Shown: positions 727-24,141, counted from the first letter of the stretch. The stretch: 38,715 nucleotides of DNA from an uncultured Ectothiorhodospiraceae bacterium (GCA_947259425.1 CAMYMO010000217.1:1-38715), one strand, 5' to 3'. The notes: a model not told the origin generated them from the letters alone. Numbers and translations are program-made.

Positions 727-3537
727 TTAATCATCTCCATGACCATCACCGTGGTCACCACCATCATGTCCATCATTACCGTTTAAATAATTTTCCAGTG
801 CTTGTGCTTCACCATTCGTCAGTGGGATGGGCCGCATTTCAGAAACATCCAACATCGCATCCAGGATTTCGCTTAATGAAGCACCGGTGACGGCTTCTTC
901 ACTACCTCCCGTTCCTCCTGGGCCATGGCATGCCGCACATTTAATGGCATAAATTTCTTCGCCCGTGGTGGGTTGTGGTTGGCTACCTCCGCCTGAAGAC
1001 AGGAAGTCTGCAATTGCCTGGACATCGGTACCTGACAGGGTAATGCCTTGCATCTGACCAACAGATGAGAGTGCACTGTTAATTAGGCTTGAACTGACCC
1101 CCACGACGGCTCCTCCGCTACCACCGGTGCCATTGAAACCATGACAGCTCTGACAATAGGTTATATAGAGTTCCTCACCGGTAGTCGGTACTGGTGTCGT
1201 ACCACCCCCGGCCAATGCATCGGCAATGGCTTGCACTTCGGTGGTCGTTAAGGTGTTGAGCCCACCCATGCCCCCGATGTTGGCATCAATCGCCGCTTGG
1301 ATCTGCGAGGCGGTGCGGTTGAGTTTGGTACTATTGGCCAAAGCACCATGGCAGCCCGAGCAGTTATTGGTGTATAACGTTGCACCATCAACGGGAGTGG
1401 GTGGGGGAGGAGGCGTACCGCCACCGGTGGCTAAGGCATCGGCAATAGCTTGAACATTGGTTGGCGTCAGGCTACTTAGTCCGCCCATGCCACCTGTGTT
1501 CGTATCAATCGCACTCTGAATTTGTGCAGCTGTGCGATTAAGTTTGCTGCTGCTTGCTAAAGCACCGTGGCAACCTGAACAGTTGTTACCATACAACGTT
1601 GCACCATCCGTTGGCGCCGGAGCAGGTGTACCGCCTCCACCGCCTTCGCCAGAGAGATAGTCGGCGATGTCTTCGAGTTGACTGGAATTCAGAGAAATCG
1701 AGTTCATCATAGACTCTTCATCAATTGCGTCGGCGATCTCATTCGCGCTTGAACCATTTACCGCCTCATAAACTCCACCGGTTCCGCCAGGACCATGACA
1801 TGCGAGGCAATAGTTATTGTAAAGCTGCTGCCCTGTCGTGGGAGGTGGTGGAGGGGTAACTCCATTAAGGTAATCGGCAATGGCCTCAAGCTGAGCTGAG
1901 CTCAATGAGATAGTACTCATCAATGGCTCTTCAATAATGGCATCTGCAATGCTATTGGCACTGTCACCGGTCACAGCTTCGTATTGACCGCCGGTTCCGC
2001 CAGGACCATGACAAACCAGGCAATAAGAATTGTAGAGTCCTTCGCCCGTAGTGGGTTCTGGTGGTGGAGTCACGCTAACCAATGCATCAGAGATGGCCTG
2101 CACCTGGGTTGGGGTTAAGACGTTGAGTCCACCCATACCACCCGTGTTAGCATCAATCGCAGCCTGAATCTGAGTTGCGGAGCGATTCAATTTAGTGCTG
2201 GTTTCCAGCGGGCCGTGGCAGGCCGCGCAATTATTGGCATAAAGTGACTGACCATCCGTTGGTGGTGGGGGTGGAGGCGTCACGCTGACCAGCGCATCGG
2301 CGATGGCCTGCACTTGTGTTGGGCTTAAACCGCTTAGTCCACCCATACCACCTGTGTTGGCATCAATCGCACCCTGGATCTGTGCAGCTGTTCGGTTGAG
2401 TTTACTACTGCTATCCAGCGCACCGTGGCAGGCCATACAGTTGTCGTTATACAACGTAGGTCCATCCAGTTCTGGTGGTGGAGGTGGCGGTAGAACGGCG
2501 TCAATGACCACCGTGGTGCTGGCGACACCCGTGATATTGTTGGCATCCTGAACCGCAAGGGTCACCGTGTAAGCACCTGGTGTGGCATAGGTATGGCTGA
2601 TGGTCGCGATACTATCGTTCATAACGGGCGTGCCATCACCGAAATCCCAGATGTAATTGGTGATTGGGCTAACATGTGTGGATAGTGAGCCATCAAAATT
2701 AACGGGCTGACCTTCGGTACCGGTATACGGTCCACCTGGATCGGCATTGGGTCTCAGTATTCCACCCACCGTGATGTCCTGGAAGGTAGAATGGGTTAAA
2801 TTATCGCTGTCGGTAACGGTTAGCTGGACGGTATAGACACCTGCGGTGGTAAAGGTATTGATGGCTTGTGCACCAGTGGCTGTGTTGCCATCACCGAAGT
2901 CCCAGTCATATTGATTAATGACGCCATCCGGATCGAACGAGGCCGAACCGTCGAAACTGACAGTGGCATTGGCCTGAGCCGTTAATGGTGCAGTGATCAC
3001 GGCGGTCGGTGCCTGAGCGGCACCGGCTGATACGTCGACGGTATAAGCCACCGAGTCGACTTCATCGCCGGTTGTGCTGGAATCCCCATTGGTTGAGAGC
3101 CCTGCACTATATATAGTATATGTGCCTGCTGTGGTCGGTGCTTGCCAGTTAAAATCCCAGGAGACCGTACCATCGCCGGCTGCCGTTACACGTTGGTTAT
3201 GGGTCAATTCACCTGCTTGCAACTTTGTGTTGGCTAGGATGCTCATAAGTGTGCCGGCATCGGCACTAACGTCAAAACCGCCGGAATTTTGTTGTCCACC
3301 AGAGATAGTTAAGGTGTATGTGCTAATAGAGCCGGGCTGTACGGAAGTCGGGCCGGTCACATCAACAACGGGGGCGGTTCCACCTGAGTGACAGGCGACA
3401 CAGGAGTTCCCACCATTGGTGGCAGGATTAGTCGAGTAACCGTTTATTCCAGCGCTAAAACTAAAGACATTCTGACTGATAAACAGGTTAATAACAAAGA
3501 TGCCGATAGTCGCCAGTTTTATACTTTTCTTATTCAT
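727..3537 (-). CDS. Secreted 936-aa multidomain c-type cytochrome: N-terminal CxxCH + beta-rich domain, 2 PKD domains, 8 monoheme cytochrome-c domains joined by Pro/Gly linkers, His/Asp-rich tail
   Basis: Signal peptide MNKKSIKLATIGIFVINLFISQNVFSFSAG. There are nine CxxCH motifs (CVACH, CMACH, CAACH, CLVCH, CLACH, CSGCH, CSGCH, CQSCH, CAACH). Two PKD signatures are present (FDGSASFDPDG..YDWDFGDG and FDGSLS..YIWDFGDG). Linkers are PPPPPP, and the C-terminus is GNDGHDGGDHGDGHGDD. Confidence 0.9.
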   Translation of the reverse strand: MNKKSIKLATIGIFVINLFISQNVFSFSAGINGYSTNPATNGGNSCVACHSGGTAPVVDVTGPTSVQPGSISTYTLTISGGQQNSGGFDVSADAGTLMSILANTKLQAGELTHNQRVTAAGDGTVSWDFNWQAPTTAGTYTIYSAGLSTNGDSSTTGDEVDSVAYTVDVSAGAAQAPTAVITAPLTAQANATVSFDGSASFDPDGVINQYDWDFGDGNTATGAQAINTFTTAGVYTVQLTVTDSDNLTHSTFQDITVGGILRPNADPGGPYTGTEGQPVNFDGSLSTHVSPITNYIWDFGDGTPVMNDSIATISHTYATPGAYTVTLAVQDANNITGVASTTVVIDAVLPPPPPPELDGPTLYNDNCMACHGALDSSSKLNRTAAQIQGAIDANTGGMGGLSGLSPTQVQAIADALVSVTPPPPPPTDGQSLYANNCAACHGPLETSTKLNRSATQIQAAIDANTGGMGGLNVLTPTQVQAISDALVSVTPPPEPTTGEGLYNSYCLVCHGPGGTGGQYEAVTGDSANSIADAIIEEPLMSTISLSSAQLEAIADYLNGVTPPPPPTTGQQLYNNYCLACHGPGGTGGVYEAVNGSSANEIADAIDEESMMNSISLNSSQLEDIADYLSGEGGGGGTPAPAPTDGATLYGNNCSGCHGALASSSKLNRTAAQIQSAIDTNTGGMGGLSSLTPTNVQAIADALATGGGTPPPPPTPVDGATLYTNNCSGCHGALANSTKLNRTASQIQAAIDANIGGMGGLNTLTTTEVQAIADALAGGGTTPVPTTGEELYITYCQSCHGFNGTGGSGGAVVGVSSSLINSALSSVGQMQGITLSGTDVQAIADFLSSGGGSQPQPTTGEEIYAIKCAACHGPGGTGGSEEAVTGASLSEILDAMLDVSEMRPIPLTNGEAQALENYLNGNDGHDGGDHGDGHGDD

Positions 3538-5200: not shown

Positions 5201-5815
5201 TTAATGATTATTTTCTTTAAGAACTGAGACACAACGCACCAGCGAGGATAAATTTTTAACCTCCATTTTTTCCATCATATTCGCCCTGTGAATTTCAATA
5301 GTGCGTGTGCTCACATTTAATTCTGATGCAATTGTCTTATTTAATTTTCCATCGACTACGCCTTCAAGTACTTCAAGCTCTCTAGGGGTAAGAGTGTCAT
5401 GTCGTGATTTTATTTTATGGACTACCATCAACGAGTTCCTTTTTGATATATCTTGTTCAAGGGCTACGCTGACATGATCTAAAAGTAATTGATCGCTAAA
5501 TGGTTTTTGAAGGAAATCGATCGCACCGGATTTTATTGCTTTTACGGCCATCGGGATTTCACCGTGTCCGGAAATCATAATTATGGGGGGATGATAATCA
5601 AGTAATTTAAGTTGTTCCTGAAGTTCGAGGCCACTCATTCCTGGCATCCTGACATCGAGAATCAGGCAACCTTTTTGTTCAGGGTCATATTGCGCCCAAT
5701 AATCTTGTGCAGATTCAAAAGTTTGCACCCGATGGCCTACTGATTCTAACAGTAGTTTTATTGCTAGTCTGACATCGGGTTCATCATCAATGATTGTTAC
5801 GGTTATATTGTCCAT
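5201..5815 (-). CDS. FixJ/LuxR-family response regulator (REC + LuxR-type HTH)
   Basis: Receiver motifs IIDDEP...LILDVRMPGMSG...ISGHG. The C-terminal LTPRELEVLEGVVDGKLNKTIASELNVSTRTIEIHRANMMEKM is a LuxR/GerE HTH. It lies 15 nt downstream of the kinase gene. Confidence 0.9.
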   Translation of the reverse strand: MDNITVTIIDDEPDVRLAIKLLLESVGHRVQTFESAQDYWAQYDPEQKGCLILDVRMPGMSGLELQEQLKLLDYHPPIIMISGHGEIPMAVKAIKSGAIDFLQKPFSDQLLLDHVSVALEQDISKRNSLMVVHKIKSRHDTLTPRELEVLEGVVDGKLNKTIASELNVSTRTIEIHRANMMEKMEVKNLSSLVRCVSVLKENNH

Positions 5816-5830
5816 AATAGAAAACCTCGT

Positions 5831-7789
5831 TTATAAGAAAGGCAAAGAAAACTTAAACGTTGTACCTTTATTAGGAGTAGAGTCTACGTCGAGCGTACCA
5901 CTGTGATTATCTATAATGGTGTGGCAGATTGCTAACCCAATCCCTAACCCTTCAGATTTCGTTGTGGTAAAAGTATCAAAAAGTTGTTCACGAATTTTTC
6001 CAGGAACGCCCGGACCAGTATCACGCACTTCGACAGTCAAATTCTTCTTTTTATCTTTATACGCGCTAACGATAATTTCACGAACAGGTGAATCATGTCC
6101 ACATATTGCCTCGATAGCATTTCGAATCAGGTTTACCAAAACTTGTTGTATTTGTATGGCGTCGCCTGCTACGTTAGGTAGTTTTTCATTTAAATCCAAT
6201 GCGATATTTATGTCTGCATGACGTAGATCCGTGCGTAACAAACTAATCACTTCTTTTATTAAAAGAGAAATATCAATTGGAGATTTGATAGGCTCTCCTT
6301 TTCTAACAAAACTACGTACGCGTTTTATTATTTTACCAGCTTGCTCGGCATTTATTGCTATACGATTCTGTATTGATTTGTATTCGTCCCAATTGGTCGT
6401 GTCTGAATCCAACATGCGTATACTGGCTTGAGAAAAGCTCATAATAGCGGTTAATGGTTGATTTAGTTCGTGTGCTATGCCTGAGGCCATCTCTCCCATG
6501 GAGCTTAAACGACCTACGTGGGCAAGTTGTTGAATCGTATTACGGGCCTGATCTTCAGCTCGTCGTCTTTTACTAATATTTCGGCCGACAACAATAATTT
6601 CCTGGCAACGATTATCATGGCACACAACTTTAAATGACCAGATAAACCAGCACCATCCCTGAGACGTTAAAATACGCAATTCACAGGTTTGTTCCTGTTT
6701 TTTAGTGAACGCTTTTGTCCAGGTATCTTTTGCGTGCTCAACATCTTCGTTGTGTATGAGTTCAAATAGGTTGGAATTTAACAGTTCGGATTCCGGTTTA
6801 CCCAGCCTTAAACTACACGAGGGACTGGCAAACAGCATCTTACCTTTGCTATCAAATTGCATGATAAGATCGGTCTGATTTTGAACCAGCAGTCGGTATT
6901 TCTCTTCGCGTTCTTTAAGTGCCAGTTCTGCTCGCATACGCTGAAGTTCAACCGATGCCCTGGCCGCAAGTATTTCAAACACAGTACAGTCAATTCCATC
7001 AGTTGTTAGATATCGGTTATCAAGTATGGCAATATGGCCGATAACATCTTTGCCATCTGCATCATAGATAGGGAACCCATAATAACTTTCAGCAAAGCCA
7101 TCTTCTTTAGGGTATAACGTACCGAGCCGATCTTCGACAAGCACATCTTTTCTGCCATTAATGACAATGTCACAAGGGGTGCCAACTAAATCATACTCAA
7201 AGTTTTCTTCAAAATCATTTGCGCACCAATACGCTAACATTCGAACACGTGATGGAGGTTGATCCAAACATTCTGTTATAAAGGCTTTGCGGACATTCAT
7301 GTACTTGGCAAGATTTTCCATGAGTGATTTAAGGAAATCATCACCACTGTTTCCTGCTGTTGTCTGGGCGATGAAATTTAATAACTTATCGGACTTGTTT
7401 AATCGGCTATCTGTTCGGGTCAGGCAAAAAAAAGTATCTCCGTCACTATGATTCTGATAACCAATACAAATCTCGATTGTCGTCTGATCGTTGGGAAATA
7501 AGGTTTGCCTGGTATGCAATATCCATTGACCTTTATCTTTTGCGGCTTGTATCGCACTGGCCCATCGTTTAGCAGGAAGATCAGGATGTATATCGAACAC
7601 AGAAAGTGTTGCAAGAGTCTGTATATTTAATCCCAGTAATTTGCGGCCATGTGAATTTACATATTTCAGCTGTCCAGACGAATCCGTAGCGTAAAAGAGC
7701 TCAGGAACGTATTCCATTGACTGGAAAAAAGAATTTTGGTTGGAGTTTTCCTCAGCCATACTAATACTAGTGTTTTCTTTGGTTGTCAT
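5831..7789 (-). CDS. Cytoplasmic sensor histidine kinase, PAS-GAF-PAS-HisKA-HATPase architecture
   Basis: H-box SGIAHELNQPLTAI, N-box LVNLIRNAIEA, and G-boxes DTGPGV / GLGIGLAI. No TM segments are visible. The N-terminal ~400 aa have PAS/GAF-like spacing. Confidence 0.9.
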   Translation of the reverse strand: MTTKENTSISMAEENSNQNSFFQSMEYVPELFYATDSSGQLKYVNSHGRKLLGLNIQTLATLSVFDIHPDLPAKRWASAIQAAKDKGQWILHTRQTLFPNDQTTIEICIGYQNHSDGDTFFCLTRTDSRLNKSDKLLNFIAQTTAGNSGDDFLKSLMENLAKYMNVRKAFITECLDQPPSRVRMLAYWCANDFEENFEYDLVGTPCDIVINGRKDVLVEDRLGTLYPKEDGFAESYYGFPIYDADGKDVIGHIAILDNRYLTTDGIDCTVFEILAARASVELQRMRAELALKEREEKYRLLVQNQTDLIMQFDSKGKMLFASPSCSLRLGKPESELLNSNLFELIHNEDVEHAKDTWTKAFTKKQEQTCELRILTSQGWCWFIWSFKVVCHDNRCQEIIVVGRNISKRRRAEDQARNTIQQLAHVGRLSSMGEMASGIAHELNQPLTAIMSFSQASIRMLDSDTTNWDEYKSIQNRIAINAEQAGKIIKRVRSFVRKGEPIKSPIDISLLIKEVISLLRTDLRHADINIALDLNEKLPNVAGDAIQIQQVLVNLIRNAIEAICGHDSPVREIIVSAYKDKKKNLTVEVRDTGPGVPGKIREQLFDTFTTTKSEGLGIGLAICHTIIDNHSGTLDVDSTPNKGTTFKFSLPFL

Positions 7790-8001
7790 CTGATCTACCT
7801 GGAATTCAATCTCCGTTTATTGCCAGAAGCAATATATCAGTCTCTCCAATAATTCGACATACGTATAAACCGAAAAAGAATAAGTAAACCCACGAATTAA
7901 ATATTTTAATTAATTTTCCTAGAATTTAACTCGAAATGAAGCGGAGTCAGATCGATGACGAATGAAAAAATTTATACGACAACTGAAATTAGGAGATATC
8001 A

Positions 8002-8346
8002 ATGTTTAATAAATCAAATAAAGCAGTATTTGCAGCCTCTATCGTAGGATTGTTGGCCGTACCCATCGCATCAACAAATGCAATGTTATCACAAGACAAG
8101 TCACCGTTCGCTATGACTGAGTTAAATGGTGGATATATGCAAATTGCTGACAGCAAATGCGGTGAAGGAAAGTGTGGCGGTTCCAAGAAGAAGGAACCTG
8201 AAGGCAAATGCGGTGAAGGAAAGTGTGGTGGTTCCAAGAAGAAGGAATCTGAAGGCAAATGCGGTGAAGGAAAGTGTGGCGGTTCCAAGAAAAAGGAGTC
8301 TGAAGGCAAATGCGGTGAAGGTAAATGCGGTGGTTCCAAGAAGTAA
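8002..8346 (+). CDS. HvfA/bufferin-like Cys-repeat RiPP-metallophore precursor (signal peptide + 4 x EGKCGEGKCGG)
   Basis: AGGAGA RBS at 7991-7996. Signal peptide MFNKSNKAVFAASIVGLLAVPIASTNA, then 'SPFAMTELNGGYMQ', then four KCGEGKCGGSKKKE(S/P)EG units (8 Cys). This matches my memory of the HvfA family signature (EGKCG motifs). Confidence 0.8.
   Translation: MFNKSNKAVFAASIVGLLAVPIASTNAMLSQDKSPFAMTELNGGYMQIADSKCGEGKCGGSKKKEPEGKCGEGKCGGSKKKESEGKCGEGKCGGSKKKESEGKCGEGKCGGSKK
8155..8343 (+). repeat. In-frame 51-nt tandem repeat, 3.7 copies, encoding KCGEGKCGGSKKKE(S/P)EG
   Basis: Copies at 8155-8205, 8206-8256, 8257-8307 and 8308-8343 (partial). The first three differ from each other by only 1-4 substitutions. 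Confidence 0.95.
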
Positions 8347-8365
8347 CTGGGTTTCGTCAGGGAAG

Positions 8366-8389
8366 GGAGATTGGGATGTTCCAATCTCC
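8366..8389 (+). promoter_or_regulatory. Stem-loop between precursor gene and downstream enzyme genes (possible leaky attenuator / mRNA stabiliser)
   Basis: GGAGATTGG (8366-8374) / GATGTT / CCAATCTCC (8381-8389), a perfect 9-bp stem 20 nt after the stop. No clean U-tract follows (TCAACCTCTTG). Confidence 0.4.
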
Positions 8390-8420
8390 TCAACCTCTTG
8401 TAAGTTTAATGGAGAATGAT

Positions 8421-10058
8421 ATGAATGCAGCAGAATTGTTTATCCGCTGTCTGGAAAACGAAGGTGTGACGGAAATTTTTGGTATTCCCGGAGAGGAAAA
8501 TCTTGCCGTTATGGATGCTTTATTATCGAGCCCAATTCGATTCATTACGACACGACATGAACAGGGTGCAGCGTTTATGGCCGATGTGTATGGACGTCTA
8601 ACTGGTAAGGCCGGTGTTTGTCTGGCAACATTAGGTCCCGGTGCAACGAATTTAATTACAGGTTTTGCAGATGCAAACATGGATAGGGCACCTATTGTTG
8701 CCATTGCGGGCCAAGGTGCAACGACTCGTTTGCATAAGGAAAGCCATCAAATCCTTGACTTGGTAAATTTATTTGAGCCTATATCTAAGTATTCAACGCA
8801 AATACGGTCCGGAAGAATAATCCCCGAGATCGTCCGAAAAGCGTTTAAAGATGCACAGGCTGAAAAACCAGGGGGTAGTTTTGTCGATTTTCCAGAAGAT
8901 GTGGCCGATGAAATTGTAGATGCAGAATATCTCCCCTTAAAAGTTCAAAGCCCAAAACCACCACGAGCGCCACAAGACAAACTTCAACAGGCGGCCGATT
9001 TAATTTCGAAAGCAAAATTTCCTTTAGTTATGGCTGGCAATGGAGTCATTCGTGGAAATGCAGCAGAGCAGCTTATTAAATTTTCAGAAAAATTAAAATT
9101 ACCTGTTGCCACGACCTTTATGGCAAAGGGAGTCATCCCTTTCTCGCATGAGAATTCTATCGGAACAGTCGGTTTACAAGCGAATGACTACGTGGCTTGT
9201 GGCTTTGATCGAGCGGATCTTGTGATATGTATTGGTTATGACATGGTTGAGTATCATCCCCATCTTTGGAATAAGCAACGAGACAAAAAGATAATCCATA
9301 TCGACATGATGCCTTCAGAGGTGGATGCGCATTATATATTAGAGGCGGGTGTCATCGGAAACATCGGTGATTCGTTAGACGTGATTAGTGAAACGGCCAA
9401 ACCGCAAAAAGTATTTCAAGCCAGTGGATTGCGCAAAACGATAGTTGAAGAATTTAATACTTATGCGGATGATCAAAGTTTTCCATTAAAACCTCAAAGA
9501 ATAATCTCTGATTTGAGAAAAGTTTTAAACCCCGAAGATGTCGTTATTTCTGATGTAGGTGCACACAAGATGTGGATGGCAAGAATGTACCAATGTGAAC
9601 AGCCAAATACTTGCATTATTTCAAACGGATTTGCATCAATGGGTATTGGTGTCCCCGGAGCGATCGCTGCAAAAATTGCATTCCCAGATAAAACTGCATT
9701 GACTGTTACCGGAGATGCAGGCTTTATGATGAATTCACAGGAAATTGAAACAGCGCTTCGAATTAACACACCCATGATCATATTGGTTTGGACTGATAGT
9801 GAGTATGGATTAATAAAATGGCATCAAATGCGTCATTATGGACGGGAAAGTCATATCAAATTTAATAACCCTGATTTTGTTAAATACGCAGAGAGCCTTG
9901 GGGCGAAAGGTTACCGTGTTAATTCTTCAAATGAGTTGATCCCTACATTAGAGAAGGCCATAGCAGATAACACGGTAGTTATAATTGATTGTCCAGTCGA
10001 CTATTCCGAAAATATGAAACTGACCGAAAAACTTGGCAACTTAATTTGTCCTATTTAG
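8421..10058 (+). CDS. alsS: AlsS-like (catabolic-type) acetolactate synthase / ThDP-dependent enzyme
   Basis: The track ORF starts at 8325, but that extension overlaps the upstream gene. ATG 8421 follows GGAGA (8411-8415). MNAAELFIRCLENEGVTEIFGIPGEENL..., HKESHQILD, IGYDMVEYHPHLWN, the ThDP motif GDAGFMMNSQE...N and IIDCPVDYSENMKL all parallel B. subtilis AlsS as I remember it. Confidence 0.8.
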   Translation: MNAAELFIRCLENEGVTEIFGIPGEENLAVMDALLSSPIRFITTRHEQGAAFMADVYGRLTGKAGVCLATLGPGATNLITGFADANMDRAPIVAIAGQGATTRLHKESHQILDLVNLFEPISKYSTQIRSGRIIPEIVRKAFKDAQAEKPGGSFVDFPEDVADEIVDAEYLPLKVQSPKPPRAPQDKLQQAADLISKAKFPLVMAGNGVIRGNAAEQLIKFSEKLKLPVATTFMAKGVIPFSHENSIGTVGLQANDYVACGFDRADLVICIGYDMVEYHPHLWNKQRDKKIIHIDMMPSEVDAHYILEAGVIGNIGDSLDVISETAKPQKVFQASGLRKTIVEEFNTYADDQSFPLKPQRIISDLRKVLNPEDVVISDVGAHKMWMARMYQCEQPNTCIISNGFASMGIGVPGAIAAKIAFPDKTALTVTGDAGFMMNSQEIETALRINTPMIILVWTDSEYGLIKWHQMRHYGRESHIKFNNPDFVKYAESLGAKGYRVNSSNELIPTLEKAIADNTVVIIDCPVDYSENMKLTEKLGNLICPI

Positions 10059-10067
10059 GAGCACGTG

Positions 10068-11513
10068 ATGAAATCACACTATCCACTTTTAATTAAGAAT
10101 GTAAAACATGGTGAATCTTCGCTTGAAGTGCGAACTCCATTTAGTGGTAATGTAATAGCCACATTTGAGACGGCAAATCACGATGTAGTTGAATTAGCAT
10201 TATCGACAGCTGATGAATTATTTAAAGATCGTTCGAGGTGGTTAACCGTCGAGAGGCGATTGTCAATTCTAAATAAAACAGTTCTGATAATGGAGGAACG
10301 TTTTGAACAGTTAGCACGCGAAGCTGCAGCTGAAGGTGGAAAACCTTTACAAGATTCTCGAGTTGAAGTAGATCGTGCCATAGATGGCGTTAGAACAAGT
10401 ATAGAATGTTTGCGTAGTGATGGCGGTCGTGAGATACCAATGAATAAGAATTTAGCTTCTATTAACAGACTGGCGTTTACAACATTTGAACCAATTGGAC
10501 CTGTCGTTGCAGTAAGTGCGTTTAATCATCCACTAAACCTGATTGTTCATCAAGTTGTACCCGCTATAGCGGCGGGTAATCCTGTCATAGTTAAACCAGC
10601 AGAAGATACGCCAATATCCTGTTATAACTTTATAAATATTTTACATGAGGCAGGTCTGCCAAAAGCCTGGTGTCAATCATTGATTGTCCACGATATTGAT
10701 GTGGCAACCTCATTAGTAACTGATTCTCGGGTTGGCTTTTTTAGTTTTATTGGTAGTAGTCGGATTGGCTGGATGCTCCGTTCCAAATTGGCGGCAGGAA
10801 CGCGTTGTGCACTTGAGCATGGTGGAGCAGCTCCGGTCATACTAACTGAAGATGCTAATCTCGATAAAGCCATCCCATTGTTGGCTAAAGGCGGTTTTTA
10901 TCACGCAGGACAAGTATGTGTATCTGTACAGCGGGTTTTTTGTCACAAAAATATTGCTAAGAAAGTAGCTACACGTTTAGCTGCCTATGTAGAAAAAATG
11001 AAAGTTGGTGATCCACTCGATGAAGAAACTGAAATAGGTCCATTAATTCGTACACGTGAAGTTAATCGAATACATGAGTGGGTGATTGAGGCTGGCAAAT
11101 CCGGAGCGAAAATTTATTCAGGGGGTAATCCATTATCCGAGAGTTGTTATTCACCAACCGTTATTTTTAATCCACCTCAAGAAGTGCAGGTCTCTCGATT
11201 AGAAATCTTTGGACCGGTTGTTTGTATCTACTCTTATTCAAATATAGATAGTGCAATTAAACAAGCTAATTCATTGCCGCTAGCTTTTCAGTCGGCTGTA
11301 TTTACACAGGATCTCGATAAAGCGTTATATATAAGTCAGCGGCTCAATGCCTCAGCGGTGATGATTAATGATCATACGGCGTTTCGTACTGACTGGATGC
11401 CATTTGCAGGTTTGAAAGAATCGGGGCTTGGTACTGGTGGTATCCCATATACATTTCATGAAATGCAAACGGAAAAAATGACCGTATTTAATTCAAATTC
11501 AATTTTAAGTTAG
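10068..11513 (+). CDS. NAD(P)-dependent aldehyde dehydrogenase family protein
   Basis: AGGAG at 10057-10061, ATG at 10068 (the track begins at GTG 10065). Catalytic region ...ALEHGGAAP... and ...HAGQVCVSVQRVF..., with FNHPLN and KPAEDTP motifs. Confidence 0.9.
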   Translation: MKSHYPLLIKNVKHGESSLEVRTPFSGNVIATFETANHDVVELALSTADELFKDRSRWLTVERRLSILNKTVLIMEERFEQLAREAAAEGGKPLQDSRVEVDRAIDGVRTSIECLRSDGGREIPMNKNLASINRLAFTTFEPIGPVVAVSAFNHPLNLIVHQVVPAIAAGNPVIVKPAEDTPISCYNFINILHEAGLPKAWCQSLIVHDIDVATSLVTDSRVGFFSFIGSSRIGWMLRSKLAAGTRCALEHGGAAPVILTEDANLDKAIPLLAKGGFYHAGQVCVSVQRVFCHKNIAKKVATRLAAYVEKMKVGDPLDEETEIGPLIRTREVNRIHEWVIEAGKSGAKIYSGGNPLSESCYSPTVIFNPPQEVQVSRLEIFGPVVCIYSYSNIDSAIKQANSLPLAFQSAVFTQDLDKALYISQRLNASAVMINDHTAFRTDWMPFAGLKESGLGTGGIPYTFHEMQTEKMTVFNSNSILS

Positions 11514-11524
11514 AGGATATAACC

Positions 11525-13057
11525 ATGCCAGATACAACATTAGTTATTAAGATATTTGAGATTGCAGCTTACCTGTTTATTTTTGTGCTCGGGACAGGAG
11601 TATTGGTTCTTATTGGAATGTATATTCTTGATATTAATCAAACAAAACAAGCCATTCGACGTAATTATCCGATTATTGGACGTTTTAGATATTGGTTCGA
11701 AGAAATGGGGACTTTTTTTCGCCAATACTTTTTTGCAATGGATCGCGAGGAGTTGCCTTTTAATCGTGCCGATCGATCCTGGGTTTACCGAGCAGCAAAG
11801 GATATTGGTAATACAACCGCATTCGGTTCAACCCGGGATTTACGAACAAGTGGTACGGTATTATTTTCTAATTGTCCTTACCCGACGCTTGATGAAGATG
11901 CGACACCTGTCGGAGCAATAACCATTGGCCCTTATTGTAAAAAGCCATATACAACCGATTCGCTTTTCAATATTTCAGGTATGAGTTATGGGGCGATTTC
12001 TACACCCGCTGTGCGTGCGTTATCGAATGGTGCACGTATGGCGGGCTGTTGGATGAACACGGGTGAAGGAGGGTTATCACCTTATCACCTTGAAGGTGGT
12101 GCAGATATCGTGTTTCAGATCGGAACGGCTAAATATGGCGTTCGGGATGTTAATGGTCGATTGAGCGATATAAAACTACGTGAAATCGCCGCGCAAAAAC
12201 AAGTAAAGATGTTTGAAATAAAATTAAGTCAAGGAGCTAAACCAGGGAAGGGTGGAATTTTACCAGGCGAGAAAGTAACAAAAGAAATCGCCAGAATTAG
12301 AGGGATCAAAGTAGGCGAAGATTCGATTAGTCCTAATCGACATCCCGAGATCAATAATGAAGAAGACCTGCTAAATATGATTGAGTATGTACGAAGTGTA
12401 ACTGGAAAACCGGTTGGGTTTAAAACGGTTATCGGAGCGTATGGGTGGGTAGAAAGTTTATGTAAGGCCATTTTAGAGCGGGGGATCGAAAGTGCGCCAG
12501 ATTTTATTACTATCGATAGTGCGGATGGAGGTACCGGTGCAGCTCCGATGAGTTTGATTGATTATATGGGACTGCCTATTCGTGAAAGTTTACCGTTAGT
12601 GATTAATATACTTGAACAATATGGACTTAGGGAACGTATCAAGATAGTAGCCTCAGGCAAACTCATTACACCCGCTGAGATCGCCTGGGCATTATGTATT
12701 GGCGCTCATTTTGTTACATCGGCACGTGGATTCATGTTTTCTTTAGGTTGTATCCAGGCACTACAGTGCAATAAGAATACGTGTCCAACTGGTATCACAA
12801 CTCATAATAAACGATTACAAAAAGGACTGGATCCCGATTCAAAAGCCGAAAGGGTAAAGAATTATGTAAAGAATATGGTTTACGAAGTTGGAGTTGTCGC
12901 CCATTCCTGTGGTGTAAAGGAGCCGCGTCAGTTACGTCGCTTTCACGCCAGAATAGTTACCGAAGCCGGAAACTCAGTTTCATTAGATGATCTGTACCAT
13001 CAAGAGAAAGTAACCCATGAAATAGTTTCCGGAACACAACTAAGTAAAGTGAATTAA
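11525..13057 (+). CDS. Membrane-anchored FMN-binding glutamate-synthase-domain (GltB domain-2-like) protein
   Basis: N-terminal TM helix (IFEIAAYLFIFVLGTGVLVLIGMYIL). Motifs NTGEGGLSPYH, KLSQGAKPGKGG, DSADGGTGAAP and ASGKL are typical of stand-alone glutamate-synthase-related FMN proteins. GAGGA RBS at 11513-11517. Confidence 0.85.
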   Translation: MPDTTLVIKIFEIAAYLFIFVLGTGVLVLIGMYILDINQTKQAIRRNYPIIGRFRYWFEEMGTFFRQYFFAMDREELPFNRADRSWVYRAAKDIGNTTAFGSTRDLRTSGTVLFSNCPYPTLDEDATPVGAITIGPYCKKPYTTDSLFNISGMSYGAISTPAVRALSNGARMAGCWMNTGEGGLSPYHLEGGADIVFQIGTAKYGVRDVNGRLSDIKLREIAAQKQVKMFEIKLSQGAKPGKGGILPGEKVTKEIARIRGIKVGEDSISPNRHPEINNEEDLLNMIEYVRSVTGKPVGFKTVIGAYGWVESLCKAILERGIESAPDFITIDSADGGTGAAPMSLIDYMGLPIRESLPLVINILEQYGLRERIKIVASGKLITPAEIAWALCIGAHFVTSARGFMFSLGCIQALQCNKNTCPTGITTHNKRLQKGLDPDSKAERVKNYVKNMVYEVGVVAHSCGVKEPRQLRRFHARIVTEAGNSVSLDDLYHQEKVTHEIVSGTQLSKVN

Positions 13058-13075
13058 GCTAATTTGGAGAAAGTG

Positions 13076-13540
13076 ATGAATATTGTAATAGATACAACAA
13101 AAAATGTTTTTTCAGCATTAGATGGCGTCGGTCAGCATTTATCGATGCTGGGATTACGTTTATTATTGGCATGGGAATTCTGGGAATCCGGAGTAGAGAA
13201 ATTTAACGGTGAAAACTGGTTTGCGCAAATTAAAGATGATTTCCCTTTTCCTTTTAATATTATTCCTACAGATATTAGCTGGTTTTTATCAACCTGGAGT
13301 GAATTGCTTGGAGCTGTTGCGCTTGTCATAGGTTTGGGAACACGATTTACGACTTTATCATTGATTATATTAGACATTGTTGCTTGGGTAAGTGTTCATT
13401 CCGGAAACGGCTATAATGTATGTAGTAACGGATATAAACTACCATTGATGTATATGGTGATGTTAATACCGTTATTACTATCTGGCCCAGGTAAGGCGAG
13501 TATTGATGAATGGCTGAAAAATAGATTTTTTTCAAACTAA
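13076..13540 (+). CDS. DoxX-family integral membrane protein
   Basis: GGAGA at 13066-13070, ATG at 13076 (the track begins at TTG 13064). LRLLLAWEFWESGVEKF...ELLGAVALVIGLGTRFTTLSLII...LLLSGPGKASIDEWL follows the DoxX pattern (about 4 TM). Confidence 0.8.
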   Translation: MNIVIDTTKNVFSALDGVGQHLSMLGLRLLLAWEFWESGVEKFNGENWFAQIKDDFPFPFNIIPTDISWFLSTWSELLGAVALVIGLGTRFTTLSLIILDIVAWVSVHSGNGYNVCSNGYKLPLMYMVMLIPLLLSGPGKASIDEWLKNRFFSN

Positions 13541-13554
13541 CTTTAAAAAGAGAT

Positions 13555-13977
13555 ATGAACATTCTAAATCAGATTAGAGTAAATATGCTTTCTATAATAA
13601 GCCTGGTTGTCGCTTTAACGGCACTTAGTTATAACACCTATAGAAATGAACTAACTGAAGAGAATCGAAATAAAAGGCATGCCGGATTTGAATTGTTAAT
13701 GGAGCTAAACCAATTACAACTTCTAGTTGATTATGCTCACTACTCAAATGACAAAAAGACAGGAAGTCCGATAAAGGGTTGGAGCCATGTATTGTATATC
13801 AATGATATGAGTCATTTAATATCGAAGGAAGTGCTGGCGCAGTCTGCCAATTTACGACAAACCTGGCGGAACGAATGGGAGACTATGCATTCGAATGAAG
13901 AAAGTAATAAAAATATTACCGTATCGATCAATATTTTACGCAATAAGGTACTAAAAGAGATCGAACGTTTGGAATAA
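13555..13977 (+). CDS. Hypothetical N-terminally membrane-anchored protein (140 aa), last gene of the operon
   Basis: One TM helix (MLSIISLVVALTALSY), then a charged helical region. It starts 14 nt after the DoxX gene. I recognise no family. Confidence 0.55.
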   Translation: MNILNQIRVNMLSIISLVVALTALSYNTYRNELTEENRNKRHAGFELLMELNQLQLLVDYAHYSNDKKTGSPIKGWSHVLYINDMSHLISKEVLAQSANLRQTWRNEWETMHSNEESNKNITVSINILRNKVLKEIERLE

Positions 13978-13997
13978 AATTTAAAACCTATTCGTGA

Positions 13998-15029
13998 TTA
14001 ACGAGTTTGATATTTTTGCTTGGATTTTTCAGTACGCCAGAGTTGGTAGTTAGGTTGTTGGCGATATGCACGAGTATTGATAAATTGCAGCACGTTTTGT
14101 AAACGGAAAAAACCGACCACCGATTCAACACGGATAATTTCTTCTCCTGACTCATCAAAAAATATCAGTGTCGGTGCGTAATCAAGGGCAAGTTCATCGG
14201 CCCATTGTCTGGCGGTAGTTCGCTTGCCAGTAGGAGTAACCAGCGGGCTGGACGACCACATATCAAGCTGTACCGATTTCATATATTTAAGTTGCTCAAG
14301 TATAGTGGGTCGAACCAGCGGGTTGGCATGTAAAACATCGCAGGCGTGACATCTTCGCTCTTCAAAGAATACCGCCAGCGGACCAGAATTTTTTAGCTTG
14401 GCTAAATCATAAGGTGGTGATGTAAAAATATTGTTTTCGTTTAAGATATCCTGCCCGAAGCTGTGAGCACCCTCAGCACGAGCAAGATAGCTTCGAAAAT
14501 TTTCCTGACGAAAGTGTTTATCTGCAACATATTCTAATGCAGCTCGAAATTGATAAGGGGGACGATAACCAGTTAATGTCAAGGCATGTTGACCGCGATC
14601 GTCAATAAACATAACGGTGGGAGTGAAGGTGGCCTTGTGACGTGCGGCAAAAACTTTTTCACTGTATTGTTTGCCATCGATATCTGTGACCAGGCTGTCA
14701 CCACGGACATTGATTGCGATCACATCAAAATTAGCGCGGGTATAGGAGACGATATCTTTACGTCCCCAGTTATTATTTAAAAGCGCTTTACAATATGGGC
14801 AATATGATTGGCCGAAATAGATAATCAGTCCACGGCGACCTCGATTCGCTTCTTTAATATCCTCCGGTATATCAAGAAAACTCAATTTAAACCATTCTGG
14901 AAGACTCAGTGCCTCGCGTAAAGGTTCATCGTTAATGGCAGGATCATCTGAGGACTTGGCAAAGGTTTGCCCGGTAAGACTCATACCAAGATAGAGGATT
15001 AAAGACGCGGTTAAGAGTAGTGTTTTCAT
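13998..15029 (-). CDS. Periplasmic protein with two thioredoxin-fold domains (CPYC and CHAC)
   Basis: Signal peptide MKTLLLTASLILYLGMSLTGQTFA. 'LIIYFGQSYCPYCKALL' and 'LAVFFEERRCHACDVL' are two Trx-like CxxC contexts about 155 aa apart. Confidence 0.8.
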   Translation of the reverse strand: MKTLLLTASLILYLGMSLTGQTFAKSSDDPAINDEPLREALSLPEWFKLSFLDIPEDIKEANRGRRGLIIYFGQSYCPYCKALLNNNWGRKDIVSYTRANFDVIAINVRGDSLVTDIDGKQYSEKVFAARHKATFTPTVMFIDDRGQHALTLTGYRPPYQFRAALEYVADKHFRQENFRSYLARAEGAHSFGQDILNENNIFTSPPYDLAKLKNSGPLAVFFEERRCHACDVLHANPLVRPTILEQLKYMKSVQLDMWSSSPLVTPTGKRTTARQWADELALDYAPTLIFFDESGEEIIRVESVVGFFRLQNVLQFINTRAYRQQPNYQLWRTEKSKQKYQTR

Positions 15030-19375: not shown

Positions 19376-19837
19376 ATGGATGTCATCTCTACAGAGCTAT
19401 TTTATTCCCGCACTCAGCGCCAGCTTGGTGCCTGGATGATTTTGTTATTAGGGCTGTTTTCCGTTCGGGTTGTTGTCCAACTTCAGGTTCTATCAAACCC
19501 AATCACTTATTTACCGGAGTTTGAAGATTGGTACAGTGCTGTTATTCCCTACCAGCATTTGTTGATCAGCCAGGCGGTGATACTGGCGGGAGGCTGGGTT
19601 TATGTCTGGCGTTTGTTTAATACACGGGTTGTGCCTAATCCACGGTTAGGTAGGGCATTGTATTTTATCGGTTGGATCTATTGGTCTGTCATGTTTATCC
19701 GATTGATTTTGGGTTTTACCTTATTGTCTGATGTTCACTGGTTTGCCCAGGAATTACCCGCGCTGTTTCATTTACTGCTTGCCAACATATTGATGTTAGT
19801 GGGTCAGTATCATCGTGGAAATTGGCCTAGATCATGA
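19376..19837 (+). CDS. Hypothetical polytopic membrane protein (about 4 TM)
   Basis: Hydrophobic segments are visible in the translation. Its stop overlaps the next start (ATGA at 19834-19837). Confidence 0.6.
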   Translation: MDVISTELFYSRTQRQLGAWMILLLGLFSVRVVVQLQVLSNPITYLPEFEDWYSAVIPYQHLLISQAVILAGGWVYVWRLFNTRVVPNPRLGRALYFIGWIYWSVMFIRLILGFTLLSDVHWFAQELPALFHLLLANILMLVGQYHRGNWPRS

Positions 19838-22422
19838 CCAATGCCATTCAATCGAGTTTGCAATGGGTTATCTATCCATTGGTCATGCTGTCAGGTTTAA
19901 TCGGTTATTTGTTCTTACAGGCGAATTATTCGGGCGTGATCTGGATTGCTTATATTCCTGTGCTGGTTGCGACGATAGTTGTTACAGGATTGGAGATCCT
20001 GATTCCGCACAAGCGTGCCTGGTTGCCAAATCAATCGGATATTAAAACGGATACGGCTTACATGTTATTCGTACAAGTCGGCGTTCCGCTGATTCTTGGG
20101 ATTGGATTGGTGAGTATGATGCACGCGCCTATTTCGGAGTTTGGGAGTAAGACGTCCGGCTGGTGGCCTCATCATTGGCCGCTGCTGGCACAAGGCGGAG
20201 TGATGTTATTGGTCGCTGAATTTTTCAGTTATTGGTTACATCGTCTTGCGCATACGCTACCGGTATTGTGGCGTTTTCATGCGGTGCACCATTCATCTGA
20301 AAAACTCTATTGGTTAAACGTAGGACGGTTTCATCCTTTAGAGAAAATTCTTCAATATGTCGTGAGTACTTTTCCCTTTATGTTAATGGGTGTCAGTCAG
20401 GATGTATTGGGATTGTATTTTGTTTTTTATGGTATTAATGGATTTTTCCAGCATTCAAATATAAAAATCAAATACGGGGTATTAAATTATCTGGTTAGCA
20501 GTGCGACCTTACATCGCTGGCATCATTCTCCAAATATCGCCGAAGCAAATCATAATTATGGAAATAATTTAATCGTGTGGGATTTATTATTTGGGACCTG
20601 GTTTTTACCGCGCGATCGTCAAATCAATGAGGTTGGATCAGGTATGCAAAATTATCCGAAGTCATTTGCTCGACAATTGGTTAAACCCTTTGAAGGAATA
20701 GCTGCCAACATGAGGTCGAGGATTAGTTATTTTATTAGTATGTTGGTGATTAAAATAGTTGGGAATTATCTTATTTATAGATACTGGAAACCATTTATTA
20801 AAAAGTCAAAGAATCCGGAAATTTATCAACAAAATATTTTAAAAAAAATAATTCATAACAATGCCAGGACGCGGTTTGGACGACTGCATGGTTTTTCGCG
20901 AATTAAAACTGAAACTAAATTCAAGTTAGATGTACCGATTATGCAATACGAGGACATTGAGGCCTTCCTAACCGAGCAGGCGATAACGGCAAGCCCTGTT
21001 TTATACAATGACAAGCCATTATTTTATGCCAGGACGAGTGGTACAACGGGTCGTCCGAAGGATATACCGGTAACGAAAAACTCATTATCTGAATTAAAGC
21101 GACAGCAACGTTTATTGACCAGCTATCAATATCAGCTATGTCCTGAGGCCTTTTCAGGTAAAGCACTTGGTCTAGTCAGTCCTGCCATTGAAGGCTACCG
21201 GGACGATGACATCTCATACGGATCAGCATCAGGATATGTTTACAAAACCATGCCAGCTTTAATAAAAAATCGTTACGTTGTTCCCGCAGAGGTATTTGAC
21301 ATAACCGATTATGAGATGAAATATCGTGTGATATGTCGACTTGCCTTGGCGGAAGAAAATCTTACTTATTTAGGGACGGCGAATCCATCTACTTTTTTAC
21401 GTATACGCCAGTTATTAACAGATGAATGGGAAACATTGTTAACCAGCTTGAAAACAGGTGTATTGGAAGGCGTTGAGACATTACCTGAAGATTTACAGAC
21501 GTTATTGAACACAAAAATAAGACCGGAACTAGCCCGTTATGAAAAATTAAAAAAATTAAATTACTCCGAGTATCGAGAGTTCAAAGATATTTGGCCATCT
21601 ATTCGCATGCTTACTACCTGGACCGGAGGTAATTGCCAGGTTGCCTTAGAACGACTTAATAATTCATTGCCTAATGACGTTAAACTGATTGAGCTTGGAT
21701 ACGTTGCCAGTGAATTACGTAGTACGATAACGTGTGACCCAAAGACGAATGCGGGGATACCCGTTCTCGATCAGAATTATTACGAGTTTATTGAAAAGCA
21801 CGACTGGGATAATGGTCATCGGGAAACGCTGGGGATGTCTGAGCTTGAGTTAGGGAAACATTATTATATTATCGTGACAACGAATTATGGTTTATATCGA
21901 TATTTTATGAATGACCTTGTTGAAGTGTGTGGCGTATTCCAAAATACACCTTTAATTAAATTTATTCAAAAAGGCAATGGAGTGACTAATATCACCGGAG
22001 AAAAGGTATATGAAAACCAACTCAATGAAGCCATTCTCGACAGTTGCACTGAATTAGATTTACAGATCAATTTTCACATTACCCTGGCAAATGTCGTTCA
22101 AGCCCGGTATGAGGTCTATGTCGAACTCGAATCAAATGAAATGATCAATATATATGTGTTAGCACATGCCATTGATAAGAACTTGTCGAAATTAAATATC
22201 GAATATTCGGAAAAACGTAAAAGTGGTCGGTTGTTAGCACCGGCTATTTATAGCCTTAATCGGGGAACCGCTGAAGAATATAAGCAGTACCAGGTCAGTC
22301 GTGGGCAACGTGAGGGACAATATAAGCTTGTTACCCTGTTAGATAAAAGCCAGTTTAAGTTTCCTATTCAGGACTATCTTGCAAGAGTCGATGAAGAAGA
22401 CGCACGCCATGCTTCAAATTAA
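19834..22422 (+). CDS. Fusion protein: N-terminal fatty-acid hydroxylase/sterol desaturase-family membrane domain + C-terminal GH3-family acyl-acid amido synthetase (adenylating) domain
   Basis: His boxes HRLAH, HAVHH and HRWHH lie within a polytopic N-terminal ~270 aa. The C-terminal ~580 aa carry the P-loop-like YARTSGTTGRPKDIPVT and GH3-like length and layout. Confidence 0.8.
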   Translation: MTNAIQSSLQWVIYPLVMLSGLIGYLFLQANYSGVIWIAYIPVLVATIVVTGLEILIPHKRAWLPNQSDIKTDTAYMLFVQVGVPLILGIGLVSMMHAPISEFGSKTSGWWPHHWPLLAQGGVMLLVAEFFSYWLHRLAHTLPVLWRFHAVHHSSEKLYWLNVGRFHPLEKILQYVVSTFPFMLMGVSQDVLGLYFVFYGINGFFQHSNIKIKYGVLNYLVSSATLHRWHHSPNIAEANHNYGNNLIVWDLLFGTWFLPRDRQINEVGSGMQNYPKSFARQLVKPFEGIAANMRSRISYFISMLVIKIVGNYLIYRYWKPFIKKSKNPEIYQQNILKKIIHNNARTRFGRLHGFSRIKTETKFKLDVPIMQYEDIEAFLTEQAITASPVLYNDKPLFYARTSGTTGRPKDIPVTKNSLSELKRQQRLLTSYQYQLCPEAFSGKALGLVSPAIEGYRDDDISYGSASGYVYKTMPALIKNRYVVPAEVFDITDYEMKYRVICRLALAEENLTYLGTANPSTFLRIRQLLTDEWETLLTSLKTGVLEGVETLPEDLQTLLNTKIRPELARYEKLKKLNYSEYREFKDIWPSIRMLTTWTGGNCQVALERLNNSLPNDVKLIELGYVASELRSTITCDPKTNAGIPVLDQNYYEFIEKHDWDNGHRETLGMSELELGKHYYIIVTTNYGLYRYFMNDLVEVCGVFQNTPLIKFIQKGNGVTNITGEKVYENQLNEAILDSCTELDLQINFHITLANVVQARYEVYVELESNEMINIYVLAHAIDKNLSKLNIEYSEKRKSGRLLAPAIYSLNRGTAEEYKQYQVSRGQREGQYKLVTLLDKSQFKFPIQDYLARVDEEDARHASN

Positions 22423-23739: not shown

Positions 23740-24141
23740 TTAATTAGCTGTTTTTTTCACAAACGGAAAGATATCGGTATAACCCATAATATCAGTAAAC
23801 AATAAAACCAAAAAAACAATCAATGCGACTTCGAGTAATCCAGCGCCAGCGGGTAGCTCATCCATCTGTTCATTCATTAACCGAACTTCGTCCGCCGTCA
23901 TTGACATAACGCGTTGTTTGGCCAGTTCGGGGTCGACGCCACTATCGGTTAATGCGGTTCTGACTTCCTCGCGATCGAGAGTTTGTAATAGTTTGTCACG
24001 GTCGATTTGATGTTGTCCTTGAGTGACCAGATCAGCACTGGTGACAATACCGGCATTGACGGACGATAAAGCGCAGATATACAACATTGTTACGATGAGT
24101 AATTTTGGTATTAATCGATTTTTAGCGAGCTGAGCAAACAT
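23740..24141 (-). CDS. PA2779-family-like small secreted/membrane-anchored protein
   Basis: GGAGG RBS then ATG at 24141 (the track starts at TTG 24153). N-terminal signal, central 'EVRTALTDSGVDPELAKQRVMSMTADEVRLMNEQMDELPAG', and a C-terminal TM ending TDIFPFV. This resembles my memory of the Pseudomonas PA2779 family. Confidence 0.5.
   Translation of the reverse strand: MFAQLAKNRLIPKLLIVTMLYICALSSVNAGIVTSADLVTQGQHQIDRDKLLQTLDREEVRTALTDSGVDPELAKQRVMSMTADEVRLMNEQMDELPAGAGLLEVALIVFLVLLFTDIMGYTDIFPFVKKTAN

Follow-up and report, generated by a model that had tools for sequence, protein, structure and literature searches.

How is an HvfA-type copper peptide matured when its operon holds no maturation genes, and what do three metabolic enzymes contribute at its side? 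This question is raised by a 38,715-nt stretch of DNA from an uncultured Ectothiorhodospiraceae bacterium (GCA_947259425.1 CAMYMO010000217.1:1-38715), the whole of which is called the window here. At 8002-13977 hvfA, the gene of an EGKCG-repeat precursor, is followed on the same strand by genes for a thiamine diphosphate (ThDP)-dependent enzyme, an aldehyde dehydrogenase (ALDH), a membrane-anchored protein with the flavin mononucleotide (FMN) domain of glutamate synthase (GltS-like), the DoxX-family protein HvfX and a small anchored protein. Recognised only recently, EGKCG/HvfA peptides form a large class of copper-binding peptides made by ribosomes and then modified post-translationally (RiPPs), one of which acts as a virulence factor in H. 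influenzae. After synthesis of HvfA in the cytoplasm, HvfB, a multinuclear non-haem iron oxidase (MNIO), and HvfC together oxidise the cysteines of its repeats to copper-binding heterocycles; the peptide then passes through the Sec pathway to the periplasm, where it binds Cu(I) (PMC11252979, PMC13097082). For the modified cysteine, given as an oxazolone/thioamide in a first-pass annotation of the window, later work has changed the assignment to 5-thiooxazole (PMC13097082; 10.64898/2026.07.17.739211). Judged by sequence and gene content, the hvfBC-less operon is a conserved variant of the HvfA/oxazolin ('captophorin', EGKCG-type) copper-metallophore cluster. The reading preferred here adds that HvfA is matured in trans, that the three enzymes are accessory and that the GltS-like protein and HvfX form a redox couple; as a whole it is held with moderate confidence.

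The precursor gene (8002..8346, plus strand) encodes a predicted Sec-exported peptide of 114 aa with eight cysteines and four 17-residue repeats. Its N-terminus reads as a basic n-region, a hydrophobic stretch at residues 7–29 and a TNA cleavage motif, with the probable signal peptidase site after ...STNA. Translation of the open reading frame (ORF) shows, besides signal peptide and repeats, the segment SPFAMTELNGGYM and likewise the segment SPFAMTELNGGYMQ. The repeats are four (E/D)(G/S)KCGEGKCGG units, the first being DSKCGEGKCGG, and their DNA is a 51-nt tandem unit in 3.7 copies with 92% matches at 8153-8343. Against the NCBIfam model NF050137 'HvfA family' the peptide scores 87.3 bits over three stretches (cut-off 19.5), while the narrower H. 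influenzae-type HvfA equivalog NF050188 gives 70.5 bits, below its cut-off of 95. The signal peptide and the (N/S)PFxMxELxxGYM segment are common to at least 20 HvfA peptides of related loci. By these matches the window precursor is a member of the HvfA/Buf_EGKCG (oxazolin, captophorin) family, and both the repeat structure and the HvfA-type assignment given by the first-pass annotation hold. An antisense ORF (7989-8393) and a frame-shifted ORF (8126-8419) with proline/serine-rich repeats were rejected as genes, being by-products of the hvfA repeat. Elsewhere in the family, an EF-hand-like calcium-binding insert (DADGDGxIxKDEF) lies in the middle of the EGKCG repeats of three surveyed HvfA peptides (L010 5877-6497, L023 6866-7420, L026 6928-7620; surveyed loci are numbered with an L throughout). 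A different EF-hand type has been described, in which EF-hand_5 domains are fused on the C-terminal side of a short EGKCG domain that has no repeats, after a predicted transmembrane helix (PMC12452194).

The adjacent HvfB and HvfC that serve as a cluster-level criterion are lacking at the window locus. Pfam searches of gene-like ORFs of at least 100 aa found neither a DUF692 MNIO (PF05114) nor a DUF2063 (HvfC) gene in the 38.7-kb window, and tblastn with HvfB and HvfC of L004 returned nothing (best E > 1). Profile hidden Markov models built from 55 HvfB-like and 48 HvfC-like proteins reached a best E of only 1.4–1.9, at less than 4 bits, against the six-frame translation. Neither tblastn nor the profile models detected remnants of hvfB or hvfC in the window, and the flanks are free of both genes over 8 kb on one side and 24.7 kb on the other. 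The earlier observation that the window has no DUF692 or DUF2063 gene is thus borne out by three kinds of search.

Downstream of hvfA the genes follow at gaps of 74, 9, 11, 18 and 14 nt; the gaps of 9, 11 and 18 nt reported earlier are correct if the ALDH starts at the ATG at 10068. The first enzyme is an AlsS-like ThDP-dependent protein of 545 aa (8421..10058, plus strand; PF02776/PF00205/PF02775) that keeps the ThDP-binding motif. It scores 793.5 bits against NF006187 (PRK08322; cut-off 509) and 535 against NF006378 (cut-off 510), but falls below the AlsS equivalog cut-off (TIGR02418, 501 vs. 551). Among solved structures, catabolic acetolactate synthases are the closest to it (416 bits). 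Orthologues 73–85% identical occupy the same position in L088, L012, L066 and L073, the last two at 73%. The second enzyme is an ALDH of 482 aa (10065..11513, plus strand; PF00171, E 4.5e-122) with the catalytic Cys and Glu motifs readable in its sequence. It reaches no NCBIfam equivalog cut-off, the model for succinic semialdehyde dehydrogenase (SSADH), TIGR01780, giving 270 bits against 646, and is closest to ALDH21, its best solved relative (290 bits), and to unnamed bacterial ALDHs.

The third gene (11525..13057, plus strand) encodes the GltS-like oxidoreductase, a protein of 510 aa with a glutamate-synthase FMN domain (PF01645, E 5.4e-90). Like GltB (PDB 1EA0, 7MFM), it has the PF01645 TIM-barrel and aligns with the FMN domain of the GltS large chain through the motifs QGAKPGxGGxLPGxKV and DGGTGAxP. 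Its CX5CX4C triad (GCIQALQCNKNTCP) matches all three cysteines of the [3Fe-4S] cluster of GltS. Unlike GltB, it has an N-terminal membrane anchor and no β subunit, and Pfam and NCBIfam detect no amidotransferase, central or GXGXG domain in it. The match to the GltB equivalog is limited to residues 148–467, and its 138.5 bits fall far short of the cut-off (1047). By this architecture the protein is a stand-alone domain protein and not a glutamate synthase. N-terminally the protein has one hydrophobic helix and, after it, a basic flank, and the catalytic domain should face the cytoplasm because of the positive-inside rule and because this is a cofactor-bearing protein without a Tat signal. The AlsS-like, ALDH and anchored FMN-domain genes that the first-pass annotation placed between precursor and DoxX are thereby confirmed by Pfam, NCBIfam and the hydrophobic helix.

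The DoxX gene, also correctly placed at 13076..13540 on the plus strand (alternative TTG start at 13064), is of the short, 154-aa type. It matches PF07681 (E 3.3e-19) and, at 146.8 bits against a cut-off of 80, NF050144 'HvfX family', with a weak DoxD match besides; counterparts in L088, L007 and L012 are 64–77% identical. On these scores the window DoxX is a member of the HvfX family within the hvfA operon.

Whether these enzymes belong to the metallophore system was addressed by a survey of GltS-like loci. Homologues of the GltS-like protein are numerous (8000 candidates at E < 1e-30, the top 120 being 73–85% identical), and the nearest named ones come from Thiohalomonadales and Thiogranum, which suggests that the source is probably a sulfur-oxidising gammaproteobacterium of marine or sediment habitat. 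An exact-protein look-up of the window's copy gave no further record, and the window's species is absent from the GTDB representatives, where identity peaks at 77%. Searching one genome per GTDB species gave 80 loci at 68–77% identity, which were screened by BLASTP against reference proteins and by a motif search for precursors; 42 of them, with at least 5 kb on both sides of the GltS-like gene, form a well-flanked subset. HvfB and/or HvfC occur in 23 and DoxX in 32 of the 80 species-level loci, and homologues 68–85% identical adjoin hvfX/hvfBC in many species. Within the well-flanked subset, hvfB/hvfC and hvfX lie beside the GltS-like gene in 13 loci (31%), in at least six gene orders, and the ThDP enzyme and/or the ALDH is present in 17. 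The 31% linkage appears far above chance expectation, because an MNIO gene is present in at most a few copies per genome and yet lies within ~20 genes in that share of loci. The neighbouring MNIO, partner and DoxX proteins exceed the cut-offs of the HvfB, HvfC and HvfX models.

The gene orders vary while the association is kept. The largest clade has the GltS-like gene alone, without ThDP enzyme or ALDH, accompanying hvfABCX. Nine loci read HvfA-HvfB-HvfC-DoxX-GltS (L018, L019, L021, L023, L024, L026, L034, L041, L060) and three HvfA-HvfB-HvfC-GltS-DoxX (L033, L049, L051). The order HvfA-HvfB-HvfC-ThDP-ALDH-GltS-DoxX of L066 and L073 is that of the window plus hvfBC, and L038 has HvfA-HvfB-HvfC-GltS-ThDP-DoxX. 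In L002-L005 and L010, HvfA is followed by ALDH and ThDP genes on the opposite strand and then by GltS-DoxX-HvfB-HvfC; a malic enzyme gene lies between HvfA and the ALDH/ThDP genes in L003-L005 (CP046178.1), reduced to a 72-aa remnant in L002 (2.67-Mb contig). The GltS-DoxX pair is interleaved between core hvf genes in two loci, as HvfA-HvfB-GltS-DoxX-HvfC (L084) and HvfA-GltS-DoxX-HvfB (L125). In the hvf-linked loci the GltS-like gene directly adjoins DoxX, except in L038 and L064, where it is one or two genes off. The same enzymes share one cluster with bona fide hvfB and hvfC in L066, L073, L038, L047, L002-L005, L010 and L011. The ThDP and ALDH genes, and above all the GltS-like gene, thus recur as an accessory module in the EGKCG clusters of marine and sediment Gammaproteobacteria. 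The first-pass annotation had allowed for chance adjacency, with the trio never found beside such peptides elsewhere; the survey finds it, and above all the GltS-like gene, with precursor and HvfX in many species.

This association appears undescribed. Buf_EGKCG clusters have been reported to combine precursor, MNIO, DUF2063 and DoxX genes 'in various combinations', with some precursors unlinked to an MNIO and with ferric reductase and molybdopterin oxidoreductase as rare extra redox genes (PMC12452194). In the parts of that MNIO landscape survey that were available, text and supplements do not mention glutamate-synthase-domain, ThDP or ALDH genes (PMC12452194). Its rule for adding members, at most 10 bp between genes, would exclude these enzymes (PMC12452194), whereas in the gammaproteobacterial lineages sampled here their association is frequent. 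No association of hvf clusters with these enzymes was found in the literature searched, coverage of which is incomplete.

The arrangement without hvfBC is itself conserved. Operons of the window type, with HvfA, ThDP enzyme, ALDH, GltS-like protein, short DoxX and usually then the 140-aa anchored protein, occur in L088, L094, L103 and L012 (= L109), and the same operon without a detected or retrievable precursor in L092, L093, L007 and L110. No hvfB or hvfC was found in the available flanks of these loci, which in L094 and L012 span ~10 kb each way. In all their precursors the predicted signal peptide, the (N/S)PFxMxELxxGYM segment and the repeats have been retained. A rough neighbour-joining tree of the GltS-like protein groups the window-type loci in a single clade, which lies inside a set of hvfBC-linked clades and has L002/L004/L010 as its sister group. 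The simplest reading would be that hvfBC were lost or relocated in the ancestor of the window's clade, because the window order equals that of L066/L073 minus hvfBC. Further losses are seen in L086, which is without hvfA and hvfX, and in L001 and L006, which keep the GltS-like gene only.

The closest described systems are the captophorin clusters, namely the nontypeable H. influenzae hvf operon (hvfX-hvfA-hvfB-hvfC, oxazolin), fontiphorin and gonophorin. With these the window operon shares a probable Sec signal and EGKCGEGKCG repeats, an HvfX-family DoxX in the unit and presumed periplasmic Cu(I) binding (PMC11252979, PMC13097082). Unlike them it has no hvfB/hvfC, three enzyme genes between hvfA and hvfX and an anchored helical protein downstream; a PAS kinase/LuxR pair takes the place of the extracytoplasmic function (ECF) sigma systems often seen in captophorin clusters.

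With no maturase at the locus, HvfA is most likely matured in trans, by an hvfBC pair that would lie elsewhere in the genome. This is the default because 2583 complete genomes carry Buf_EGKCG precursors and only 67 of these are without an MNIO gene (PMC12452194 Table 3). The chief rival holds that the genome has no hvfBC at all and that HvfA is exported unmodified as a Cys/Lys-rich thiolate Cu(I) peptide, its thiols reduced by GltS-like/HvfX or by general periplasmic reductants. Such a buffer is conceivable, since several Cu(I) ions are bound in vitro by HvfA that lacks the modification (PMC11252979). It would suit the lack of hvfBC in the window and around the L094 and L012 operons, the retention of an intact-repeat precursor across a diverged clade without adjacent hvfBC, and the existence of the 67 genomes with a precursor and no MNIO gene (PMC12452194). 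These amount to only 2.6% of precursor-bearing genomes, however, and in the window-type repeats E-G-x-C-G is kept with Gly after every Cys, and every position required by an MNIO (the Cys, a small residue after it, no Pro) is retained. Even the divergent HvfA of L012 (6490-6855, from a high-GC genome), in which EGACGEGSCG and EGTCGEGSCG replace all repeat lysines and the spacers are acidic rather than basic, falls within the substitution tolerance of FonBC, which covers EG[A/T]CGEGSCG (PMC13097082). Window-type precursors are still plausible HvfBC substrates because their repeats keep every FonBC-required position and because the L012 substitutions are tolerated. Relatives also offer a precedent for separated units. 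In L095 and L097 a satellite hvfA-hvfX unit lies beside a separate unit of short precursor, hvfB and hvfC; in L097 the second, short HvfA-like precursor has one double repeat and lies directly 5' of hvfB, and ORFs resembling an ECF sigma factor and a zf-HC2 anti-sigma factor (10440-11400) lie between HvfA-DoxX and HvfB-HvfC. Unmodified action is accordingly ranked as less likely, though it keeps a minor share of the probability. Either way, the hvfBC-less operon is a natural test case for whether in trans maturation is the routine for these peptides or whether they can work without modification.

A membrane redox couple is probably formed by the GltS-like protein and HvfX. In the mechanism inferred here, the flavo-iron-sulfur domain would face the cytoplasm and would oxidise or reduce a glutamate/2-oxoglutarate-like substrate, with HvfX and the quinone pool as electron partners. 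A 2-oxo acid could be converted by the ThDP enzyme and ALDH to the acid one carbon shorter, as in 2-oxoglutarate to succinic semialdehyde to succinate. The reducing power would serve the metallophore, for the iron cofactor of HvfB, to keep HvfA thiols reduced or to keep copper as Cu(I), and the divergent PAS kinase/LuxR pair would control the operon. In favour of the redox reading, HvfBC depends on reductant in vitro, both for its mixed-valent iron cofactor and to have the substrate thiols reduced (10.64898/2026.07.17.739211), and ferric-reductase or molybdopterin-oxidoreductase genes occur in other EGKCG clusters (PMC12452194). DoxX-fold proteins are paired with soluble or anchored redox enzymes in the M. 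tuberculosis DoxX-SodA-SseA complex and in the DoxD of thiosulfate:quinone oxidoreductase. Here the partner of HvfX would be a flavo-iron-sulfur protein with a glutamate-synthase domain, a pairing not found in the literature searched. The cyanobacterial 2-oxoglutarate decarboxylase and SSADH (Zhang and Bryant 2011; PMC10418658) likewise have an acetolactate-synthase-like ThDP gene beside an ALDH gene, and such a pair could plausibly act alongside an enzyme with 2-oxoglutarate as product or substrate. The likeness is one of family and gene context rather than of direct sequence comparison, and unlike the cyanobacterial pair the window ThDP enzyme has catabolic acetolactate synthases as its nearest solved structures and the ALDH lies below every equivalog cut-off.

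Several points weigh against the reading of in trans maturation with an accessory redox module. The loci were picked by similarity to the query and the association counts carry no phylogenetic correction, and in 17 of the 42 well-flanked loci the GltS-like gene is solitary. That an hvfBC pair acts in trans is an assumption from a base rate in which canonical clusters predominate, and the losses of hvfA and hvfX in L086, L001 and L006 could mean that the system is decaying after loss of hvfBC. The solved relatives of the ThDP enzyme are acetolactate synthases and not decarboxylases, and in Caulobacter DoxX is dispensable for both modification and copper phenotype (PMC11626156). Operons of GltS-like, ThDP and ALDH genes without hvf genes also exist (L056, L057, L065, L069, L074 and L085, at ~10000-14700), so the GltS-like gene has a core function, and the trio a function, that does not depend on the peptide. 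These loci are mostly alphaproteobacterial (Rhodobacterales; Ruegeria, Leisingera and relatives), with L085 labelled Methylophilaceae, and their ThDP enzymes are 41% identical. In Leisingera (L057) the neighbours are LysR regulators and unrelated genes, which give no hint of a substrate.

Such operons also speak for a second rival, in which the trio is an ordinary carbon/nitrogen operon, for example a tricarboxylic acid cycle bypass of 2-oxoglutarate decarboxylase and SSADH, perhaps co-regulated under stress and without a biochemical link to HvfA. A bypass of this kind has been proposed for obligately autotrophic sulfur-oxidising Gammaproteobacteria (PMC9751133). The malic enzyme gene that adjoins the trio in L003-L005 and as the L002 remnant, and also in L012, would fit it, as would the kinase/regulator pair, which tracks the trio in L086 even without hvfA and hvfX. 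It accounts poorly for hvfBC and hvfX adjoining the GltS-like gene in nearly a third of well-flanked loci, for a linkage kept through at least six gene orders, with GltS-DoxX inserted between core hvf genes in L084 and L125, and for a largest clade that pairs hvfABCX with the GltS-like gene and neither of the other enzymes. Mere neighbourhood is for these reasons considered quite improbable. If only co-regulation with a glutamate/2-oxoglutarate bypass were involved, the operon would still point to metabolism as one facet of copper stress in marine bacteria that oxidise sulfur.

The third first-pass reading, in which ThDP carboligase, ALDH and FMN enzyme would make or attach to HvfA a small carbonyl-derived group in place of the MNIO modification, draws on the tightly packed, hvfA-headed operon without MNIO and on its conservation in several contigs, but is weakened to the point of being very hard to credit, because the same enzymes sit with hvfB and hvfC in sister-lineage clusters, and also by the trio without precursor in Rhodobacterales and L086, by its make-up of cytoplasmic small-molecule enzyme families, none of them known to act on peptides, and by the lack of a recognition-element protein or peptide ligase in the operon.

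Returning to the redox couple, a more specific form of it can be put forward tentatively, and is itself rather unlikely. The GltS-like protein and HvfX would be a dedicated membrane electron-transfer pair for thiooxazole/EGKCG copper peptides, fed by oxidation of amino acids or 2-oxo acids through the ThDP enzyme and ALDH, which either supplies reductant to HvfBC or keeps periplasmic thiols and copper reduced; in hvfBC-less operons it would let unmodified HvfA act as a redox-maintained thiolate buffer. If true, this would be the first function for HvfX/DoxX and would link a RiPP metallophore to central metabolism. More generally, the GltS-like oxidoreductase is a concrete candidate partner for HvfX/BufD, the DoxX protein not needed for modification, and a candidate source of reducing power for HvfBC.

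Regulation of the operon probably falls to a divergent gene pair on the minus strand. A cytoplasmic PAS histidine kinase of 652 aa (5831..7789; PAS/HisKA/HATPase domains), whose best NCBIfam match, FixL, lies far below cut-off, is a candidate regulator divergent from hvfA. It is paired with a LuxR/FixJ-type response regulator of 204 aa (5201..5815; Response_reg and GerE). The pair accompanies the operon in L086, L088, L012, L093 and L094. The kinase orthologues are 55–56% identical in L086 and L088 and weaker in L012, L093 and L094; the response regulator is 72% identical in L086 and L088 and 61% in L012.

Just after the hvfA stop, RNA folding gives an 11-bp stem-loop without a T-run (8365..8390, plus strand); taken in full, the surrounding 86-nt region folds unremarkably (z -0.91). 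Hairpins follow hvfA in four window-type operons, with conserved position and structure and unrelated sequences; the intergenic region folds at -21.9 kcal/mol in the window, -27.1 in L088 (6775-6880) and -42.1 in both L094 (4935-5048) and L103 (718-808). An intrinsic terminator was rejected, as the stem-loop has no T-run and a simple terminator scan reports none there. The element may instead act as a partial attenuator or mRNA stabiliser, which would fit differential expression of precursor and enzymes.

The small anchored protein noted earlier after DoxX is confirmed at 13555..13977 (plus strand). It has 140 aa, belongs to a family of ~120 members and matches no Pfam or NCBIfam model. An AlphaFold2 model (predicted local distance difference test score 90.7) shows a four-helix protein whose long N-terminal helix runs into a helical bundle; Foldseek against the PDB gave generic helical-bundle matches only and none below E 0.09. 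Homologues lie 3' of DoxX in five window-type loci (L088, L091-L094) and, in L125, close to the cluster. The protein is a possible operon member, but its membership of the system is uncertain because homologues also occur in unrelated contexts (L169-L171). Convergent on the operon at a 20-nt gap is a thioredoxin-like gene (13998-15029, minus strand) for a probably secreted protein of two domains with CPYC and CHAC motifs. Its product was considered as a periplasmic reductant of HvfA and dropped, as conservation of the gene next to the operon does not extend to L086, L088, L012 or other surveyed loci.

The rest of the window abounds in GGDEF/EAL and PAS signalling genes. At 24441-25862 (plus strand) lies a gene for a eukaryote-type Ser/Thr protein kinase of 473 aa, and at 23740-24153 (minus strand) one for a DUF6627 protein. 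A fusion protein of 862 aa, encoded by one ORF at 19834-22422 (plus strand), unites a fatty-acid hydroxylase domain and a complete GH3 (acyl-acid amido synthetase) module; a mandelate-racemase/enolase-family gene comes next, at 22379-23509. Near the start of the window, 727-3537 (minus strand) encodes a 936-aa multihaem cytochrome c with seven cbb3-type c domains and two PKD domains. The gene lies in a GC-rich patch (~53.5% GC at 1001-3000 vs. ~40% elsewhere) and may have been horizontally acquired.

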